Sequence record: MW650886.1
Origin: Escherichia phage vB_EcoM-ZQ1
Reading direction: 5' to 3' (one strand)
DNA length: 64,000 nucleotides
Shown: positions 1,939 to 21,446 of the stretch, piece after piece
Numbering within the stretch: the first letter of the stretch is position 1
How the letters are laid out: every line of letters begins with the position of its first letter
Program-made: the position numbers and the translations under genes
The notes under the pieces: model-generated
What the model was told of the DNA's origin: nothing
What the model saw: only the letters and a program-made list of their open reading frames with translations
Database searches by the model: none

Positions 1939-1949
1939 GGGGTATTTAG
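1939..1949 (-). promoter_or_regulatory. Late-promoter-like motif CTAAATACCCC (minus strand) about 30 nt upstream of tailspike start
   Basis: Minus-strand sequence CTAAATACCCCATATTGGTCATCCTTTATGGGGTATTATCATG; resembles T4-type late promoter TATAAATA; same motif recurs upstream of other late genes. Confidence 0.4.
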
Positions 1950-2012: not shown

Positions 2013-5000
2013 AACTTACCTAGTGCGATAGCGACGTACGGCGACGTTGTATTCCCGACAACGTTATACAGCCCAATCGGCGTTCGGTCTAATGATGGTA
2101 GCCTTGCCCCTGCAACACCACCAACACAGCCCAAAGGTAATGGGGTACTAAAGTTTAAATTAAGACGCTCAAAGATGGAGAAAGCCAGCGTTGGCACTAC
2201 CGGCACCAGTTCAATTATTTGAGGTCTTGTGCTAGCCGGAATGGAAACATTGTAAAACGATGCGAATGTTGTCCCGTCAGCCCTTTTCAATAACGGAGTC
2301 ACCGTCATGCCTGACTCCACTGGACCAATCATCAGGAACAGCCTGGTGATACCTGACAATTCAGTATTAACGCTGAAATACATATTACTGCTACTGGAGG
2401 TAGAGTTCACTCCAGAGAGCGAACCGAAACACGGAGTATCTTTTATGATACTTTGCAACCAATTAGCTTTAAAATTAGTTACCCTTTGTGTTCTGTTTTC
2501 CTGGGAGATAAAGAAATTCTGCCGGTGGATGCTGGTTACAACGTTCTCACCACTTCCGGAGTCTGGGACCTCATCAAACGATATTAACTCGTACACCCCA
2601 TCGGACACTTTCTTAGCCGACGCGTAGCAGCTGAAATAATCACCTTGATACACTATCTGTGATGTACTGAATGTGCTTAGATCGTAGGTAATGGTCAAGC
2701 TTACATTGCTGCGGTACATCGGAGTCACAGGACGTGAAGTAGTACCGGTAATTACCAGTGGGTCATCGAAGTCAGTGTACGCCTCAATTCGCGGGCCAGC
2801 GTACACATAATTGCTAACCAGTATTGACCAGCCGTTCGCCCCGGTTAGGTCATTTGTTTTACAAATAGCGATACCACCTGCGGAGCTACCAGTATTTGCT
2901 CTGATTACAGCAATCATTTGCCCGCGATAGTATCCAAGACAGGTTTCATTAATCAGGCTCCGCCCTGGAAAATCACTTATCTGAAAACTTTTAGTAACTG
3001 ACCATGTAGTACTTGCATTCAGAAGTACATCTGATGAAGTTACAAGCTGAACTTCTGTACCTGTTATACTGTAACGAGAAATAATAAGTTTGCCATCCGG
3101 TGTTGTTAATACGTTACCCCACTGATAATAATCATCCGTTGTTACGATGTCAGATTTGCTTGTAAATGCACCAGAGTTATTGAGATCTACGTACCCTACA
3201 ATAGTTTTTTTATAGGTATCTGCGGCGACGTCATGCAGCGTAAAGGCGATAATTAACTGATTACCTGGGTTGCTAACCGAAATGCTTGGCTCTTTTGCCG
3301 CTATACCCGCAGGTGGCACATATTCCCATATAACAGAAGCACTCCCGTCCTTGAGAATTTCTGCGATGCAGGCACTGTGCTTACCTGTTGCCTGATCGAT
3401 GTGTGCTGGCGATCGACGGAAACATAAAAGATTACGACCATTCCAGAATACGGTGTTACCAAATCCGTCATACTGTACCGTGGTATCTGTGTCTTTTAAT
3501 GACGTGAGGGTTGAAACGGCGGTTTTTAATGATGACATTGATTCTTTGGAAGTCACATCAACTGATGAATCCAATATAGATATTTCGTTATATATTGTAT
3601 CGATATTCTCCTGCACAGTTTTCCCATTACTGGAACCTGTAATCTGGGCACCATTATCTGATAATAAATCACTTCTTAAAGAAGCATCACCAACGCTAAC
3701 CCACGCACCAAGACCAGTACCACCAGATGCTTCAGGGGTTGAGCCAGATGGGACAGTTTTTGGAAACTCCCCTTCCCAGCGGTATTTACCTGTTGTATGG
3801 GTAAGTAATTCATTTTTAACATTAAGTGTAGCACCAGAATCAAATGTCCCGGACAATGTGACGTACTCTTCACGAGATACAGCCAATTCCCCAAGATCTA
3901 CAGAACCCGCTGAATGCACCAGTATAGCGGAAGAACTAAGACTGACAGCAGTAGTACCAGGGACAATATCAGCAGGCAAGGGATAAGCCCTTTGCGTCTC
4001 CTTGTCATAAATAACTTTATACCCACTTAACGCAGCACCAACACTAAAATAAACGACCTCTGTATCTTTAACATTGGCTACACGAGCCACTTCCCGCAAA
4101 GTATAATCAATTTGATTATAGATGTTTGGTGTTCCATTGATAATTACAACAACTTCATCCTCTGGTTCCAGTTCTTGCGCCAGAGTGATTTTACTGGTTA
4201 ATGGATCGAATGTGAATCCCAGATTTTTATACTGGCGACTTCCGTTTATATCAATGGCCGGAACATCATCAACAACGACGTCCAACGTGATTTCGGTTTC
4301 ACCACCAATCGCTGAACCCCCATTATAGACCCAAGTAATCGTAGAAGAACTAGAACCACCGCCATTACCCAATTGAATAGGAGTATATTCAATCACCTGA
4401 AGTTCTGTGTTGGCTGGCAAAGAAGGACTGAAAGTGATTACATTCCCATCTAGTGAATATTTGGATTCCGCAAGACGTTTCCCATCAGCATACACGTCCA
4501 CGATTGTTGGTGGAGTATTGAGAGCGACAGAACTTGTTTCAGACGCCAAAATTTTTGTAAAGATTTCACGACTGTAGACACGACCTTGGCCAAGACCGAC
4601 GCCGGATGTGATAACCCAACCTTGTTCAGGTCCAGACCAAGTGAACGTTGCTGATACGTTATCAGTTGTTATAGCCATGTCTTCAGTGGAGCCATACAAA
4701 TTATTTCCAGAAGGAGACACGGTCAATGGGTAAGTGGCAAATTTCCCATAAGCATCACAAATAGTAACGGAATCCCCAATACGCGTAGGGGAAGGGAGAA
4801 CCACTGTAGATGCCCCTGTGGTATTATTAATGAGATAGCCTCGCCCTTCAGTGAGCGTTGCCGTAGAGGCATGCGGAAGGACTTCCCAGCGGATACCACC
4901 GCCACCCAGCGGCAACCATCCACCATTTTCATAGAAGCCCTCAAATTCGTCGGAGTCGGCATTGTAGCGAACGGAAGACGGGAGTCCTGTGCTGGCATTA

Positions 5001-5161
5001 CCCTCGGGTAAAGTCAGGACAGCATCTGGTCCATGCTCAATCGTACCCGTGTTGAGGAGACCAGCCAAAGTAGACTGCTCTTCAGCCGCCAGACCGAGAG
5101 GGAAAACAGGCTGTGTTGGTTTATTAGCCATTTCAAATACCCCTAAATGTGTTCGTTTCAT
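2009..5161 (-). CDS. Large tailspike protein (about 1040-1050 aa); start probably the second ATG at 5131
   Basis: Long ORF with Gly/Ser/Thr-rich beta-rich composition; shares the ~95-aa module with ORF 14..1909 (residues around 350); first ATG lies inside an inverted repeat and the promoter-like motif, second ATG has SD AGGGG. Confidence 0.55.
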   Translation of the reverse strand: MKRTHLGVFEMANKPTQPVFPLGLAAEEQSTLAGLLNTGTIEHGPDAVLTLPEGNASTGLPSSVRYNADSDEFEGFYENGGWLPLGGGGIRWEVLPHASTATLTEGRGYLINNTTGASTVVLPSPTRIGDSVTICDAYGKFATYPLTVSPSGNNLYGSTEDMAITTDNVSATFTWSGPEQGWVITSGVGLGQGRVYSREIFTKILASETSSVALNTPPTIVDVYADGKRLAESKYSLDGNVITFSPSLPANTELQVIEYTPIQLGNGGGSSSSTITWVYNGGSAIGGETEITLDVVVDDVPAIDINGSRQYKNLGFTFDPLTSKITLAQELEPEDEVVVIINGTPNIYNQIDYTLREVARVANVKDTEVVYFSVGAALSGYKVIYDKETQRAYPLPADIVPGTTAVSLSSSAILVHSAGSVDLGELAVSREEYVTLSGTFDSGATLNVKNELLTHTTGKYRWEGEFPKTVPSGSTPEASGGTGLGAWVSVGDASLRSDLLSDNGAQITGSSNGKTVQENIDTIYNEISILDSSVDVTSKESMSSLKTAVSTLTSLKDTDTTVQYDGFGNTVFWNGRNLLCFRRSPAHIDQATGKHSACIAEILKDGSASVIWEYVPPAGIAAKEPSISVSNPGNQLIIAFTLHDVAADTYKKTIVGYVDLNNSGAFTSKSDIVTTDDYYQWGNVLTTPDGKLIISRYSITGTEVQLVTSSDVLLNASTTWSVTKSFQISDFPGRSLINETCLGYYRGQMIAVIRANTGSSAGGIAICKTNDLTGANGWSILVSNYVYAGPRIEAYTDFDDPLVITGTTSRPVTPMYRSNVSLTITYDLSTFSTSQIVYQGDYFSCYASAKKVSDGVYELISFDEVPDSGSGENVVTSIHRQNFFISQENRTQRVTNFKANWLQSIIKDTPCFGSLSGVNSTSSSSNMYFSVNTELSGITRLFLMIGPVESGMTVTPLLKRADGTTFASFYNVSIPASTRPQIIELVPVVPTLAFSIFERLNLNFSTPLPLGCVGGVAGARLPSLDRTPIGLYNVVGNTTSPYVAIALGKL

Positions 5162-5164
5162 CTA

Positions 5165-5175
5165 GGGGTATTTAG
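5165..5175 (-). promoter_or_regulatory. Late-promoter-like motif CTAAATACCCC (minus strand) at the start of the large tailspike gene
   Basis: Minus strand reads AAATACCCCTAGATGAAACGAACACATTTAGGGGTATTTGAAATG; motif is half of an 11-bp inverted repeat. Confidence 0.4.
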
Positions 5176-5183
5176 TTTTCACT

Positions 5184-6395
5184 TTAGAAAGAAGCGACTA
5201 GATTGTAGTCAACGGAGCACGCAGTCGTCGTGTTCGCATTTGTTATCGTCAAACGAAGTTTTGAAGACACTACAGAACCCGCGAATGTCACCGTACCGGA
5301 AGTGGACTTCTGTACCAACAGCTCAGACTTGATAGTCCCGTCACGGGTGATCGTCACGCGGTACGTATCCACGACGTTGCCTGTACCCCATTGTGCACTG
5401 ATCAACACCTGGCAAAGGTTCACCAAATCGAAGTCGGGTAACGCAGAGTTCCCAGAAGCAGAGACAGTGATACCGCTTGGGTTGGTCTTCCCGATCTTCA
5501 CACGGGCAGCAATGTCGGCGTCCAGGCTTGTCATTTTGGCGTTGTAGGTCGATGTGTTGACCTTTCCAGACAACGTGGTATTGATCGTGCCGATATCACT
5601 CTGAATGCCGCTGATGGAACCGTCCAACGCCGCCATCTTCGTGTTATACGTACTGACGTTCACTTTGTTGTTCGTCAGATCCAGTATACTGGTGTCCAGG
5701 CTAGACATCTTGGAGTTGTAAGTCGACGTGTTGACCTTCGCAGCCAGAGTGGTGTTGACAGTGTTGAACTGAGACTGGATATCCAACATATCGGCATCAT
5801 AATCAACAACCTTCAGATAAGCGTTGAAACGCGTATCATTGAAGATAGAAGCCACAAACGCAGATGTGTCGTACTTGACAGTGTCGGTTCCACTCACCAG
5901 TAACATGGTAGTTGGCACACCAGTACCAGAGTAATTGGCCAGATTTGTGCCATCGAAAGTGAGTTTGTTGTAGCCGCCAGGTAACAACTCGATTTTCAGA
6001 CCAGAGTTAACCCCGGCAGTGTCTTCACTCACGCCGTGCTTGCGCAGCATAGACAGATTGACGCCATCAGTGGAATCAACTGGCTCATCTGCGATGGTAA
6101 GTTTCTTCCCCGTAGGGATACTGACACCAGCATTGGCTCGGATTTCTGCGGCAAAAGTCTTCCGCCCGTTGATAGTTTGTTCACCACCGTCGGTACGGAT
6201 CACTTTGTTTTCCAGTGTGTCGTAGATATTATCCACAGAACGCTTCAGCTCATACGTCAAATGAGCTGAAGGAGGAAACAACGAATCATCAACAGCGAAA
6301 TCGTTGACAACATCAGTCTTGCTTATTTTATCGTCAACAGAAGAAAGGATTGCATCAATCTGCTGACCTGTGTATCGACTCAGAAAATCGGCCAT
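5184..6395 (-). CDS. Tail fibre protein with internal sequence repeats
   Basis: 403-aa ORF; repeated units VNTSTYNSKM / VNVSTYNTKM / VNTSTYNAKM typical of fibre shafts; strong SD AAGGAG upstream; located between baseplate-like and tailspike genes. Confidence 0.5.
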   Translation of the reverse strand: MADFLSRYTGQQIDAILSSVDDKISKTDVVNDFAVDDSLFPPSAHLTYELKRSVDNIYDTLENKVIRTDGGEQTINGRKTFAAEIRANAGVSIPTGKKLTIADEPVDSTDGVNLSMLRKHGVSEDTAGVNSGLKIELLPGGYNKLTFDGTNLANYSGTGVPTTMLLVSGTDTVKYDTSAFVASIFNDTRFNAYLKVVDYDADMLDIQSQFNTVNTTLAAKVNTSTYNSKMSSLDTSILDLTNNKVNVSTYNTKMAALDGSISGIQSDIGTINTTLSGKVNTSTYNAKMTSLDADIAARVKIGKTNPSGITVSASGNSALPDFDLVNLCQVLISAQWGTGNVVDTYRVTITRDGTIKSELLVQKSTSGTVTFAGSVVSSKLRLTITNANTTTACSVDYNLVASF

Positions 6396-11954: not shown

Positions 11955-12031
11955 GGTCCTGTAGCTCAGTCGGTTAGAGCAGTGAACTCATAATTCATTG
12001 GTAGTTGGTTCAAATCCAACCAGGATCACCA
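11955..12031 (+). tRNA. tRNA-Met (anticodon CAT; could also be Ile-lysidine type)
   Basis: Hand-folded cloverleaf: acceptor GGTCCTG/CAGGATC, D-stem GCTC/GAGC, anticodon loop CTCATAA, T-arm GTTGG-TTCAAAT-CCAAC, encoded CCA. Confidence 0.85.
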
Positions 12032-12283: not shown

Positions 12284-12372
12284 GGAAGGTTGCCCGAGAG
12301 GTTTAAGGGACTCGACTGCTAATCGAGTGGGGCTTTTAGCCCCCGAAGGTTCGAATCCTTCACCTTCCGCCA
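12284..12372 (+). tRNA. tRNA-Ser (anticodon GCT), type II with long variable arm
   Basis: Acceptor GGAAGGT/ACCTTCC, D-stem CCC/GGG, anticodon loop CTGCTAA, variable arm TGGGGCTTTTAGCCCCC, T-arm GAAGG-TTCGAAT-CCTTC, encoded CCA. Confidence 0.85.
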
Positions 12373-14768: not shown

Positions 14769-14779
14769 CTAAATACCCC
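14769..14779 (+). promoter_or_regulatory. Late-promoter-like motif CTAAATACCCC upstream of ORF 14809
   Basis: GCCTAAATACCCCCATATGG about 30 nt upstream of SD GAGGAA and ATG 14809. Confidence 0.4.
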
Positions 14780-17201: not shown

Positions 17202-18619
17202 ATGACCGTTTTCTATACGAACGTTGCCCGCAGGGGTAATGACCTGTTGATTCGAATTGCAGATGACATGGGTAATCGCCGTCTGTTGAAAAAGAAATTC
17301 GAACCTACTCTCTATTTACCCACGGCTGACTATTCAAATGTTGAAAAGGTCGGTCTTCTCAATGAACCCCTGGTAGCCAAGCAGTTCCCTTCCATGCGTG
17401 ACGCTGACAACTATCTTGAAGAGTACAAGGAAGTCCAGGGTGCTGCCATTTACGGGCAGACCGATTATGCATACCAGTTCATCGCCCATAGCTTTCCTGG
17501 AAAGATTGAGCCGGATTATTCCAACATCCATATTGCTAACCTCGATATCGAAGTGTTCTCCGCCGGGTGGAAAGATGGAAAGATGACCAAAGGTCCATTC
17601 CCTCACCCAACCATTGAGCAGCAGACGTTCAAAGGGAATGAGGCGCGCATTCGCCGCTTCCATCAGCAGGTACTGGCCAACCATGACTTCATCCGTGAGC
17701 ACTTTCCCAGTTCCTTTATCAGCAACAACGTCACTGATCAGTTCCCTATCATTGACAGCAACGGCAAGATCACCCAAGACATGAATGCGGCGTTCCCCAT
17801 TACCCTGATCCAGCTTCAGGATATGGCGACCAATAAGTTCATGGTCTGGGGTATGCCCTGTGCCAAAGACCGCAATAAGTTCGCATACGACACCGAAGAC
17901 AAAGAGATCGGCGGCCTTGAGGTTGTTTATCAGGAGTTCACCACAGAACAAGATCTGCTGCGCTCGTTCCTAGACTTCTGGTCGGAGCGTCAGTTTGATG
18001 GCTGGACTGGCTGGAACATTGAGACGTTTGATAGCCCTTATCTTGTTGAGCGCATGAATCAGGTTCTGGGTGAGGCTGAAACGTCGCGCCTCAGTCCTTG
18101 GGGTATCATTAAGAAGCGTATCATTCGCGATAAGAAGGGCGATATCACGACGTATCAGTTCGTGGGTTGCCCTATGCTCGATTATATGCAGATCTACAAG
18201 AAACACACGTACACCACCCGTGAACGCTACTCTCTTGACTGGATTGCGTATTGTGAGCTGGGTGAGAAGAAGATGGACTACAGTGAGAGCAAGTCGCTCT
18301 TTGATCTGTACTTCAACGACTACTGCAAACACACCCGATATGGTATCAAAGACGTTAAGCTGGTATGGCGACTTGAACAGAAGCTGCGCCTGCTCCAACT
18401 GATGTTCGTCCTGGCCTACCGCACCAAGTCCAACTATGAAGACGGTCTGGGCACTGTGGCTCCGTGGCTGGCCATGTGCTACTATCGCCTGTACGAGAAG
18501 GGGATAGTGCCTAAGATCCAGCGTGTATACGATGGTCCGACCGACTTTGAGGGTGCATACGTCATGGATGTGACACCAGGAATCTACTTCTGGGTCTTCT
18601 CGGAAGATTTGAACTCCCT
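17202..18619 (+). CDS. DNA polymerase, family B (T4 gp43-like), exon 1 (N-terminal exonuclease half)
   Basis: Exo I motif NLDIEV; ORF terminates 5 codons after the sequence DLNSL, which is the first half of polymerase motif A. Confidence 0.75.
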
Positions 18620-19802
18620 TAAGTTAGCAGCATAGGGGCTTTGGTTGGCGACAACCATCGAATAACTCTCTTAATTGCTGGGAAGTCTCTTTAGAGATAA
18701 TCAGCAGCCAAGGTCGGCCACGAAGACCTAAATACTCTGTAACCACGGTGAAGGAGTAAGGTCATGAAGGAAATCAAGAGTCTGTTCTATCGAAATGATT
18801 TGGTAATTGAAGAATCTAAGATAGAAGAATATTTGAAGTTCTGTAAGGAACACAGTTATGATGGTGATGGATACAGTGAACGCCATCATGTACTGCCTCA
18901 GGCACATTATCCTGAGTTCTCTAAAGAAGAATGGAACATCGTAAACCTGTTGTACAAAGATCATGTGGAGGCTCATCGCCTATTGCATGAAGCATTACCA
19001 GAAGATAAATCAGCGTTCTTCGCCTACTTCATGATGAAATCCCATAACGGGGAACTAAGTGAGGAATTGAGAAGAAAGAATGTTGAAATGTTGACGGGAG
19101 AAGGGAATCCTTCGAAGAGGGAAGATGTCAGAAGAAAGATATCCAAATCTAAGAAGGGTGTTAAAAGGGCAGATATGAAGGGTAAGGCTTATTTCGGCGC
19201 TGATAAAGAAACAGCTGAAAGAATTAAAGCCAATTCCAGTCTTGTTCACAAAGGCACTGTCCCCGTAAGACTCCTGGATGGTAGTGTTATCAAAGTTTCA
19301 ACGCAAGACCCGAGATATTTGAGTGGTGAGTTGAAATGTATAATAGGTGCAAAGAAAGGTCAGGTGGGACCAAACACCGACCCAAAAGCGAAGAAGAAAT
19401 TTAAAGATTCTTTAGAGAAAAGGAAGGAAATGTTTGCCAGAATGAGTGGGGAAGAAATAACCACTCATTGCTTGACACAACAGGATTTAGGTAAGAAGAC
19501 TGTAGAGTGGGGCAAGTTGGCAAGAAACTTCAAACGACTCTTTGGTTACGCTGGGTTAAACCCAGATGATTTCCTTGAAGTAGTGGGCGACAAGGTTCAA
19601 CGACTATCGAAAGCAAGACCGACGACTAAGCGTCTGATCTGAAGCGAGTAGAGTAGGGGCAAGCGCCTCGAAATGGAGAGAATCTCTAGACAGTTCTGGA
19701 GATTGTGATATAGTCTGGCCTGTATGGTGACATACAGCAGTGTTCGGTAAACTGAATGACGAACACGGGGGATGAAATAGCGAGCATCCCTGAACACAAG
19801 CG
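18620..19802 (+). mobile_element. Putative group I intron carrying an HNH homing endonuclease, inserted in the DNA polymerase gene
   Basis: Splicing 18619 to 19803 restores the frame and yields DLNSLYPHII (motif A); exon 1 ends in U, intervening sequence ends in G; internal ORF has an HNH motif. Confidence 0.6.
18764..19642 (+). CDS. HNH homing endonuclease (intron-encoded)
   Basis: HNH motif ERHHVLPQAHYPEF...NIVNLLYKDHVEAH; NUMOD-like repeats GEGNPSKREDVRRKISKSKKG; SD AAGGAG. Confidence 0.7.
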   Translation: MKEIKSLFYRNDLVIEESKIEEYLKFCKEHSYDGDGYSERHHVLPQAHYPEFSKEEWNIVNLLYKDHVEAHRLLHEALPEDKSAFFAYFMMKSHNGELSEELRRKNVEMLTGEGNPSKREDVRRKISKSKKGVKRADMKGKAYFGADKETAERIKANSSLVHKGTVPVRLLDGSVIKVSTQDPRYLSGELKCIIGAKKGQVGPNTDPKAKKKFKDSLEKRKEMFARMSGEEITTHCLTQQDLGKKTVEWGKLARNFKRLFGYAGLNPDDFLEVVGDKVQRLSKARPTTKRLI

Positions 19803-21150
19803 ATATCCACACATCATTCAGCAGTACAACCTCGGTCCTGAGACTATCGTTGGCGACAAACACCAGCGCCGCGAGATTATTGAGGCTATGTGTGAAGAGC
19901 TGGCTGCTCAGATGAATAACATGGCAACGCCGATGCACAAACGTCGGTTGATGAAAGCCCTTCACGACAAGCTGTTGCGTGCGGTTGACGAACGCCTGCA
20001 GGTTGTTGATGAGTTGGTTGCCCTGGGTGAGTTCCACTTTGAAACCCTGCGCCGCTACAACGTGTCGTTCACGCCGAACGTTCAATTCTTCAGCAACGAG
20101 AAGATGTCGTTCCTGTCTGAAATCATGCGTGGTATCTACAGCGACCGTAAAGTAGAGAAGGCCAAGGGTCTGAAGTATGAGCAGTGGGCTGGCTGGTGTA
20201 AAGAGATGTCGAAGGGCGACTTCCATCTTGAGTCTGCCATAAAGTCTCGCTACTATGACCCAGAGTGGTATGAAGAGCACAAGAACATTGATCTTGATGC
20301 CCTGACCGAAGTGATGAAGAAGTGGGAAGATCTGGGTGTTGCTCAAGATACCCTACAGCAAGGTCTGAAGATCTTGATGAACGCAGGTTATGGCGCTATC
20401 TCGAACGTCTGGTTCAAAGAGTACTTCAACCTCAACATTGCCGAAGCCATCACCACATCCGGTCAGCTGATCAATAAGTGGAACAAGCGTTACACTGATG
20501 ACTATCTGAACAAGCTGTGTGGTACAACAGGCCAGGACTTCGTCATTGCAGGGGATACCGACTCCAACTACATCTGTATTGAGCGTCTTGTCAAGCAGTT
20601 GTGGCCTGATGTTACTGACCATCATGCTATGGTTGATAATATCGACCAATGGATCAAAGACAACTACCAGCCGAAGACCAATGAGTGGGCACAGCTTCTG
20701 TGTAACACCATGAACGGATTTGAACAGCGCATGGTGTGGGAGCGTGAGGTCATTGCGTCAGCCGCTGTCTGGCGAGCCAAGAAGATGTATGCCATGGCCG
20801 TGTACGACAGTGAGGGTATCAAGTACGAGAAGCCGAAGATCAAGTTCAAAGGTCTGGAAGCCCGCAAGTCCACCACGCCGGAATGGTGTCGTGAGCGTCT
20901 TGTTAAGTGCTATGAGAAGATCCTACTCGGCACCGAAGAGGAAGTACAGACGCTCATCTCCCAGTACAAAGAGGAGTACATGAAGCTCTCTGTAGACGAT
21001 ATCGCCAAGGCATCCGGTGTGTCCGACATAGAGAAGTGTGTGGCCGCCGACGGCTCGTTCATCTCTGGTGCTCACTATGCTGCCAAGGCTTGTGTGGGTT
21101 ACAACCGTCTGGTTGAGAAGAACGAAGACCTCGGGCCTGCCGATGATTGA
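19803..21150 (+). CDS. DNA polymerase, family B, exon 2 (polymerase half)
   Basis: Begins YPHIIQQYNLGPETIV (motif A continuation); motif B KILMNAGYGA; motif C VIAGDTDSNYI. Confidence 0.75.
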
Positions 21151-21446
21151 GTCGGGTGATAAGGTCAACATGGTACTGCTGAAGAATGGCAACCCGTTTG
21201 GCCAGAATTACTTCGCATACCTGAGTTCTTCCCCGAGGAGCTTGGTCTGGGCAAATGGGTGGATTATCAGGCGGCCTTTGAGAAGTCCTTCATTGATCCG
21301 ATTCAGTCTATCCTCGACGTGGTCGGCTGGTCACACAAGCGCCGTGTGAACCTTCTTGCCATGATGCAAAAGAAGAAAGGTTGATTCAATAAACCAAAGG
21401 GGGATATAATTCCCCCTGTTAACCCTTTGACAAACAGGTGATTGAA

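Follow-up and report, generated by a model that had tools for sequence, protein, structure and literature searches.

The 1183 nucleotides (nt) that lie between positions 18620 and 19802 of the DNA of Escherichia phage vB_EcoM-ZQ1 (record MW650886.1) are very probably a group I intron, mobile and self-splicing and of subgroup IA2, inserted in the sequence for motif A of the family B DNA polymerase (PolB). All positions refer to the window, that is, the whole stretch of 64,000 nt that was analysed. The phage is a ViI-like member of the Ackermannviridae; its polymerase region is 97.1% identical to that of Escherichia phage vB_EcoM-RPN242 and 80-90% identical to that of many other Ackermannviridae, including LIMEstone-type phages of Dickeya and kutterviruses of Salmonella. 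As it stands the polymerase is spread over two open reading frames (ORFs) with a third between them, all on the plus strand:

17202-18635, plus strand: first ORF (ORF1), 477 amino acids (aa), with the PolB exonuclease domain (Pfam PF03104, E = 7.8e-18)
18764-19642, plus strand: middle ORF, 292 aa, an endonuclease gene
19756-21150, plus strand: second polymerase ORF (ORF2), 464 aa, with the PolB polymerase domain (Pfam PF00136)

Our reading replaces this arrangement with a single interrupted gene:

17202..18619, plus strand: PolB exon 1, N-terminal and 3'-5' exonuclease domains (PF03104, phrog_262/2062)
18620..19802, plus strand: intron, 1183 nt, with U at its 5' end, starting UAAGUUAGC and ending ACAAGCG, with the terminal guanosine (omega-G) at 19802
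19803..21384, plus strand: PolB exon 2, palm, fingers and thumb (PF00136, phrog_262), with its frame broken in the window

The predicted splice junction in motif A and the two-cistron alternative

An earlier note on this DNA, made from the letters alone, had recognized an exonuclease half and a polymerase half as separate ORFs, and its boundaries 17202, 18635 and 19756 agree with the ORF list and with the Pfam and PHROG matches; both halves fit the same PHROG family (phrog_262), the first over profile positions 6-407 and the second over 408-771. PolB is the sole replicative polymerase gene seen in the window. Exon 1 finishes with GAT TTG AAC TCC CT, its last base (18619) being the second of the motif A Leu codon (DLNSL), and exon 2 opens at 19803 with A TAT CCA CAC ATC ATT; the intron sits between the second and the third nucleotide of that codon. 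Splicing in silico from 18619 to 19803, the join that the note had proposed, keeps the frame and restores DLNSL-YPHII, and reading the sequence likewise bore out a U at the end of exon 1 (18619), a G at the end of the intron (19802) and an intervening length of 1183 nt. The predicted junction is ...AACUCCCU / AUAUCCACAC in the spliced nucleotide sequence and ...EDLNSLYPHIIQQ... in the peptide, also written ...VFSEDLNSLYPHIIQQYNLGPETIVGDK. Left unspliced, ORF1 would end in DLNSLKLAA and ORF2 would start with MTNTGDEI (MTNTGDEIASIPEHK).

Alleles without the intron mark the identical junction. When 600 nt comprising both exon ends joined together were compared with phage records, the exons proved to be contiguous in 244 of these. 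The closest intron-less record, that of Enterobacter phage fGh-Ecl02, is 98.3% identical to the query and encodes the polymerase in one coding sequence (CDS) of 1000 aa; its empty site reads ...GAACTCCCT / GTATCCTCAC... (also given as ...AACTCCCT / GTATCC), and intron-less sequence of this type around the insertion point reads ...GAACTCCCTGTATCCTCACATC.... Over its whole length the spliced gene of the window is 97.3% identical to that of fGh-Ecl02, with a junction free of gaps, the only gaps being two single-base indels far downstream. A join of 18620 to 19804 would encode the same protein, yet the intron would then end in A; we preferred 18619/19803 because it alone gives both a U.G pair in helix P1 and a terminal G. 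Alignment of the spliced product to gp43 of phage RB69 also runs without a gap across motif A (aligned stretch FSEDLNSLYPHIIQQYNLGPETI).

The same ORFs could be read as a split polymerase, in which a free-standing endonuclease gene separates two cistrons whose polypeptides assemble, as do gp43A and gp43B of Aeromonas phage 44RR. There are indeed two long ORFs, the second of them with an ATG at 19756, and database records annotate two 'DNA polymerase' CDSs; a split gp43 is, moreover, reportedly a known arrangement in T4-related Aeromonas phages. The break, however, would fall inside motif A, parting DLNSL from YPHII, which would stand behind a 16-aa leader encoded by helices P9.1 and P9.2 of the intron. 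Nothing resembling a Shine-Dalgarno (SD) sequence was found 5' of the ATG at 19756, as the note had observed in arguing against two polypeptides, and that argument gains from the relatives: the ATG lies in the loop of P9.1, in phage CRW-SP2 this region is 1 nt shorter through a deletion and lacks the ATG, and phage Coodle has a different hairpin there, 4 nt shorter. Length differences of 1 and 4 nt imply that this stretch is conserved as RNA rather than as protein, and we did not find the second cistron to be conserved as a coding sequence with a start of its own. The flanks of the endonuclease gene, finally, form a covarying group I core that exceeds the Rfam cut-off once the ORF is absent (see below). 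Taking all these observations together, we regard two separately translated polypeptides as very improbable.

Two other kinds of insertion were considered beside the group I intron. An intein was rejected, as a UAG stop at 18633-35 occurs 14 nt into the insertion and the length of 1183 nt is not divisible by three. A group II intron gave just a 14-bit noise match in the Rfam scan, and it was not searched for beyond Rfam.

Group I membership and structure of the intron RNA

At gathering thresholds, Rfam reported two tRNAs and no intron in the whole window. In E-value mode the group I model RF00028 matched in two places, with 19.1 bits at 18610-18853 (P1-P6) and 28 bits at 19477-19737 (the consensus for P7, P3', P8, P7' and P9), which is the pattern to be expected when a long ORF divides the core. 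The gathering cut-off of the model is 50 bits, and the window copy misses it because an ORF of 879 nt interrupts the core. Most of the endonuclease ORF is gone from phages A221, PC3 and PH4, which keep both RNA segments at about 99% identity to the window; the ORF-less intron of A221 (465 nt) scores 58.8 bits (E = 2e-14). The element thus passes the cut-off through its A221 copy, and the copy in the window does so only indirectly. The group I core that the earlier note had expected a covariance model to find is in this way present, as is a P1 with U18619 opposite G18635; the U.G wobble at the 5' splice site and the terminal G (omega-G 19802) are both group I features. In A221 (locus L003, 2560-2680; also in PC3 and PH4) most of the ORF was lost by two deletions between the short direct repeats AAGGAAAT and GAGTGGGG.

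The structure that we derived has the following helices, all on the plus strand:

P1, 18616-21 with 18633-38: CCCU/UA (the slash marking the splice site) with UAGGGG; U18619.G18635 wobble
P2, 18642-47 with 18652-57: UGGUUG-GCGA-CAACCA, with a GNRA loop
P3, 18666-71 with 19675-80: 100% paired, one compensatory pair
P4, 18676-81 with 18701-06: 100% paired
P5, 18685-89 with 18694-98: 94.5% paired
P6, 18707-09 with 19594-96: 100% paired, invariant
P6a, 18713-21 with 19583-91: GUCG.CCAC with GUGG.CGAC; spans the ORF, which occupies its loop
P7, 19601-06 with 19711-17: invariant; fits the family consensus GUUCAACGACUA / GAUAUAGUCU
P7.1, 19616-24 with 19631-40: compensatory pairs present
P7.2, 19656-60 with 19665-69: compensatory pairs present
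P8, 19681-90 with 19695-704: compensatory in 5 of 10 pairs
P9, 19720-26 with 19731-37: GUGA loop; compensatory in 4 of 7 pairs
P9.1, 19740-46 with 19760-66: compensatory in 5 of 7 pairs; its loop holds the ORF2 ATG (19756)
P9.2, 19768-74 with 19785-91: compensatory in 5 of 7 pairs, followed by the 3' tail to omega-G 19802

Covariation was assessed in an alignment of 11 distinct homologues from which the ORF loop had been cut out (nine from Ackermannviridae, one from Vibrio phage 1.255.O, which has a divergent copy at the same codon, and the T4 nrdB intron), the resulting mini-introns being joined at the conserved boundaries GCAGCCAAG / AAGGTTCAACG. Across 13 helices of the P1-P9.2 model, 97.1% of 896 cells held standard pairs and 32 of 83 pairs had changed on both sides, values that none of 500 shuffles reached in any measure; when the 3' partners were slid by 1-3 columns, about 40% of the cells were paired and 2-8 pairs were doubly changed. 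The helices P3, P7 and P9 that the earlier note had named for a group I core are accordingly found within a structure that covariation supports, even though P7, being invariant, carries no covariation information. The clearest single case is P2, compensatory in all six pairs with 100% of the cells paired and a loop that is always GNRA (GCGA, GUGA or GUAA). P1 forms in the Vibrio and T4 nrdB copies too, despite a different sequence on the intron side, the UAG stop that closes ORF1 (18633-18635) falling inside the internal guide sequence, and the P9.1 and P9.2 stems of Coodle are wholly different in sequence and still self-complementary. The long-range P6a, which spans the ORF, shows two double compensatory changes in LIMEstone1 (G-C to A-U and C-G to U-A), is replaced in the Vibrio copy by the unrelated complementary ACCGUUGUUGAC / GUCAACAACGGU of 12 bp, and in T4 nrdB consists of the complementary GUUUUGC/GCAAAAC within the same GCC-AAG...AAG-GUU frame as in the window and in the Vibrio copy. 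Folding the joined strands gave the same P6a helix in 11 of 12 copies, a truncated T4 nrdB construct folding otherwise. An unconstrained minimum-free-energy (MFE) fold of the A221 copy (z = -3.3) recovered P1, P2, P3, P4-P6, P7.1, P7.2, P8, P9, P9.1 and P9.2; P7 is missing from it because P7 forms a pseudoknot with P3.

The presence of both P7.1 and P7.2, between P7 and P3', is a hallmark of subgroup IA. Together with P9.1/P9.2 and the resemblance to the T4 nrdB intron it points to subgroup IA2 (the type of T4 td, nrdB and sunY), the resemblance to nrdB being what favours IA2 over IA1 or IA3.

Several points weigh against this reading of the intron. The window copy itself stays below the RF00028 cut-off with 28 and 19.1 bits, the passing score being that of a relative. 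The structure was partly drawn from the sequence of the window, which inflates the percentage of paired cells relative to the slid controls, and the double changes come mostly from four divergent rows of the alignment (Vibrio phage, T4 nrdB, Coodle and CRW-SP2). We saw no convincing P10 pairing of exon 2 AUAUCC with the loop of the guide sequence, and our search of the literature turned up neither transcripts nor splicing results for this or any other copy from the Ackermannviridae.

To judge from its sequence the window intron should splice itself. The polymerase gene would be transcribed as a single pre-mRNA, in which the internal guide sequence would hold the end of exon 1 in P1 (U18619 opposite G18635), P3-P8 and P4-P6 would build the core, and the long-range P6a would bring together the two halves that flank the ORF. 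Exogenous guanosine would attack after U18619 and the freed exon 1 would then attack after omega-G 19802, the product being an mRNA for one polymerase of about 1000 aa with DLNSLYPHII intact.

Two observations concern the sequence of the core itself. An ORF of 68 aa on the minus strand (19604-19810) overlaps the ribozyme core from P7 to P9.2; its homologue is labelled 'hypothetical protein' in RPN242 (gp177) and A221, and the structured RNA has here most likely given rise to a spurious gene call. In IMG/VR viral contigs, a scan for the P7 motif pair GGTTCAACGACTA...(95-125 nt)...GATATAGTCT matched at more than 120 loci (L009-L128), which are assorted introns of IA type, some contigs holding several copies, which suggests that IA-type introns with exactly the GGTTCAACGACTA/GATATAGTCT P7 are very common in uncultivated phages. 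These loci were left out of the analysis, for which the homologues in phage records sufficed.

The endonuclease gene, its presumed control and the spread of the element

Three features of the intron bear on the endonuclease and its expression:

18728..18735, plus strand: promoter-like CTAAATAC, a presumed late promoter for the endonuclease gene
18733..18758, plus strand: hairpin of UACUCU (18733-38) with AGGAGUA (18752-58), masking the SD sequence of the endonuclease gene
18764..19642, plus strand: homing endonuclease gene, 292 aa, with a MobE-like HNH motif and a weak NUMOD3-like motif; orthologue of I-LimII

The protein fits the PHROG family phrog_12434 ('HNH endonuclease') end to end (E = 2e-159). 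Among 11 aligned homologues, down to 26% identity, E39, H41, H42, N58, H67 and H71 are invariant, and the AlphaFold model places two strands (39-42 and 59-62) and a helix (64-77) at pLDDT 86-94, forming a beta-beta-alpha unit over residues 39-77. The motif is 38% identical over 60 aa to T4 MobE in BLASTP (E = 4e-9), and T4 MobE itself just passes the Pfam HNH model PF01844 (21.5 against a threshold of 21.4 bits). Counting in the other direction, searches with the endonuclease gave no HNH match among Pfam, NCBIfam or PDB sequences, and fold searches gave no significant match. We accept the enzyme as an HNH endonuclease, as predicted from the E-HH-N-H-H motif and the homology to MobE. The earlier note had named an HNH endonuclease with an SD sequence of its own; the name holds through motif and homology, though without a Pfam match, and the SD sequence is there, GAAGGAG lying 7 nt 5' of the ATG. 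At its other end the gene runs into the ribozyme, and its last 19 or so codons (...GDKVQRLSKARPTTKRLI) overlap P6a', P6', J6/7, P7 and P7.1; the peptide GDKVQRLSKARPTTKRLI recurs in the homologue alignment wherever the endonuclease ORF enters the core.

The hairpin over the SD sequence is predicted in all 11 Ackermannviridae copies and is preserved in the Vibrio copy by compensatory changes (UACCUU/AAGGAGGUA). The CTAAATAC element, also kept in the Vibrio copy, occurs at four sites in the window against 0.91 expected, with an ATG of the same strand 28-41 nt downstream of each:

1942-1949, minus strand: CTAAATAC
5168-5175, minus strand: CTAAATAC
14769-14776, plus strand: CTAAATAC
18728-18735, plus strand: CTAAATAC, the site in the intron

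Three of the sites run on as inverted repeats of the form ATACCCC...GGGGTAT that reach the region of the start codon. The LIMEstone1 record annotates the -10 of a 'putative late promoter' at the homologous TAAATA. The paper on phage CBA120 described the late promoter of this family as still unidentified in 2011, and our search of the literature found no published late-promoter consensus for it; CTAAATAC with its hairpin in the 5' untranslated region is a candidate for the late promoter motif of this phage family. By analogy with T4 intron and mob endonuclease genes, for which comparable expression control is described (Gibb & Edgell 2009, as cited in PMC2993671), we infer that the hairpin silences the endonuclease gene on the pre-mRNA and that its own promoter-like CTAAATAC drives expression. 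Read-through pre-mRNA would leave the endonuclease ORF untranslated and the ribozyme free to fold, while transcripts that start inside the hairpin would expose the endonuclease gene's ribosome binding site. The enzyme would presumably cut intron-less polymerase alleles of co-infecting relatives, and repair after cutting would copy the intron together with some flanking exon; the enzyme's activity and target, the timing of its expression and the splicing of the intron are all inferred here, and what the sequences show is the junction, the RNA structure with its covariation, the family membership and the horizontal distribution.

Comparison among relatives fits such a history. Identity is 92-100% for the RNA parts of the intron, 81-99% for the endonuclease gene and 72-92% for the exons, and the carriers include Kuttervirus (Salmonella) and Aglimvirinae (E. 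coli and Dickeya), with a relative of the intron in Vibrio phages. We profiled identity to Kuttervirus LPST94 in segments of 100 nt: the first that enters the intron, lying across the 5' splice site with 18 nt of exon 1 in it, is 94% identical, the rest of the intron is 98-100%, the first 300 nt of exon 2 fall from 99% through 93% to 84% and the sequence beyond stays at about 80%, exon 1 being mostly at 75-85%. An intron 98-100% identical where the exons are about 80% identical indicates spread by homing, and the decay in exon 2 looks like a co-conversion tract. One patch of 400 nt in exon 1 (18002-18401) is 99-100% identical to LPST94; it is a recombination patch that is not contiguous with the intron. 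The profile as a whole would be the footprint expected of homing with co-conversion, plus ordinary mosaicism. More tentatively, the intron and its endonuclease may form a unit that is moving actively between Ackermannviridae genera with different hosts, as the intron and exon identities and the co-conversion tract would fit homing across genera in recent times, and that possibly serves co-infecting phages as a weapon in competition, cutting a rival's polymerase gene at motif A, rather than being only a passive parasite; a 2010 review of T4-related genomes (PMC2993671) speaks of no convincing evidence for such movement.

In some lineages the endonuclease is decaying as well: A221, PC3 and PH4 have deletions of the gene, and in Vibrio phage 1.255.O it is in two pieces. 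With the same intron in polymerases just 80% or so identical, the Ackermannviridae offer a convenient natural system for homing and co-conversion, to which the natural endonuclease-deleted and endonuclease-split variants add. Some relatives have a second insertion further downstream in the polymerase gene, absent from the window: at 4021-4863 of locus L002 (LIMEstone1) and 3321-4163 of locus L008 (allotria) it contains an endonuclease gene on the opposite strand (I-LimIII), and at 4167-5301 of locus L132 (Vibrio phage 1.255.O) it contains a compact group I intron (RF00028, 80.1 bits at 5042-5301).

The end of the polymerase gene and comparison with known introns

The earlier note had ended the polymerase at 21150, which did not hold up, as the homologous reading frame continues to 21384. 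Against RPN242, A221, fGh-Ecl02 and P46FS4, a run of G is one base longer in the window (extra G at 21132), and the T that these four have after 21219, in GCATA(T)CC, is missing; the two indels are 87 nt apart and create an in-frame stop at 21148-21150. Between them the sequence is 100% identical to that of Agtrevirus P46FS4, and in the +1 frame it encodes 29 codons of conserved protein (...GLPMIESGDKVNMVLLKNGNPFGQNYFAY...). Both indels are probably sequence errors, since they compensate each other around a conserved coding stretch. If they were real the polymerase would lose its last 80 or so residues, and this copy of the gene could be defective, spliced or not, which would count against the functional gene that we propose.

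That possibility belongs to a wider one, namely that a real group I intron has decayed and no longer splices, or that the polymerase gene is non-functional here. The frame broken at 21132 and after 21219, with its stop at 21148-21150, would agree with it, as would the loss or splitting of the endonuclease gene in A221, PC3, PH4 and Vibrio phage 1.255.O. Every helix is nevertheless intact in the window, and the 3' RNA part is 100% identical to those of LPST94 and allotria and the 5' part to that of RPN242, so that the window intron has no private mutations. The gene is the sole one for a replicative polymerase seen, many independent viable isolates carry the same intron, and two single-base indels around 29 codons conserved in the shifted frame are typical of sequence errors. 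Decay of the intron or of the gene is very unlikely, and we retain an intact intron in a single polymerase gene. For annotation, the two 'DNA polymerase' CDSs found in most records of these phages should be merged into one, 17202..18619 joined to 19803..21384.

The label 'putative intron' for this element dates from 2012. In Dickeya phage LIMEstone1 (Adriaenssens et al. 2012, PMC3296691; GenBank HE600015) the homologous middle ORF is labelled 'putative intron I-LimII', and the paper counts 'three putative introns' for uvsW and the DNA polymerase gene together, without RNA structure, splice sites or splicing data; in later records one finds either the I-LimII note again or the polymerase divided among two or three 'DNA polymerase' CDSs. 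I-LimII is the orthologous element, in the same codon, of the same 1183 nt and with the same layout, its RNA segments being 94%, its endonuclease gene 82% (nt) and its endonuclease protein 85% identical to those of the window; LIMEstone1 differs in having the second polymerase insertion, I-LimIII. Table 1 of PMC3296691 lists I-LimII as a GIY-YIG enzyme, which appears to be an error, as the protein has no GIY-YIG motif and has the invariant E-HH-N-H-H.

The closest well-studied intron is that of T4 nrdB (IA2, I-TevIII). It shares with the A221 copy about 81% identity in core blocks (blastn) and with the window the order of helices including P7.1/P7.2, an ORF in the P6a loop, an endonuclease of the HNH family, UAGCGAG conserved in the P9.2 loop and the GCC-AAG...AAG-GUU frame around P6a. 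It differs in its host gene, ribonucleotide reductase rather than DNA polymerase, and in a much shorter P7.1, and its splicing has been demonstrated experimentally, whereas that of the window intron is predicted. The two endonucleases are not obviously orthologous, that of the window aligning to MobE. T4 MobE resembles the window enzyme in its catalytic motif (38% identity) and in an SD-masking hairpin (Gibb & Edgell 2009, as cited in PMC2993671), but it is a free-standing protein of 141 aa, whereas the window protein is intron-encoded, has 292 aa and includes an extra C-terminal region, presumably for DNA binding.

Polymerase genes have been interrupted in this manner elsewhere. According to the review by Petrov et al. 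2010 (PMC2993671), Aeromonas phage 25 (25.g43B) and phage JSE have group I introns in gene 43, that is, in a PolB-type gp43 as in the window; the intron of phage 25 self-splices and, unlike that of the window, depends on a free-standing endonuclease gene, having none within itself, and the intron of JSE holds a truncated endonuclease gene. Both phages belong to a different family, the Straboviridae. In SPO1 and SP82 (I-HmuI/II) and in cyanophage Pf-WMP3 (I-PfoP3I, PMC3428280) an IA2-type intron with an HNH enzyme likewise lies in a conserved polymerase motif, but the polymerases are of family A, the insertion sites are unrelated and the enzymes have been shown to nick. The element of the window is thus a real but ordinary mobile element of the classical kind, T4-type IA2 introns with HNH endonucleases in essential replication genes, and it leaves the current understanding of group I introns unchanged; the present analysis contributes the exact junction, a structure supported by covariation, the subgroup and the affinity to T4 nrdB, the regulatory hairpin, evidence of spread across genera and a corrected gene end.

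Elsewhere in the window, the two genes that Rfam (RF00005) identified as tRNAs, with 70.9 and 56 bits, are the following:

11955-12028, plus strand: tRNA gene (70.9 bits)
12284-12369, plus strand: tRNA gene (56 bits)

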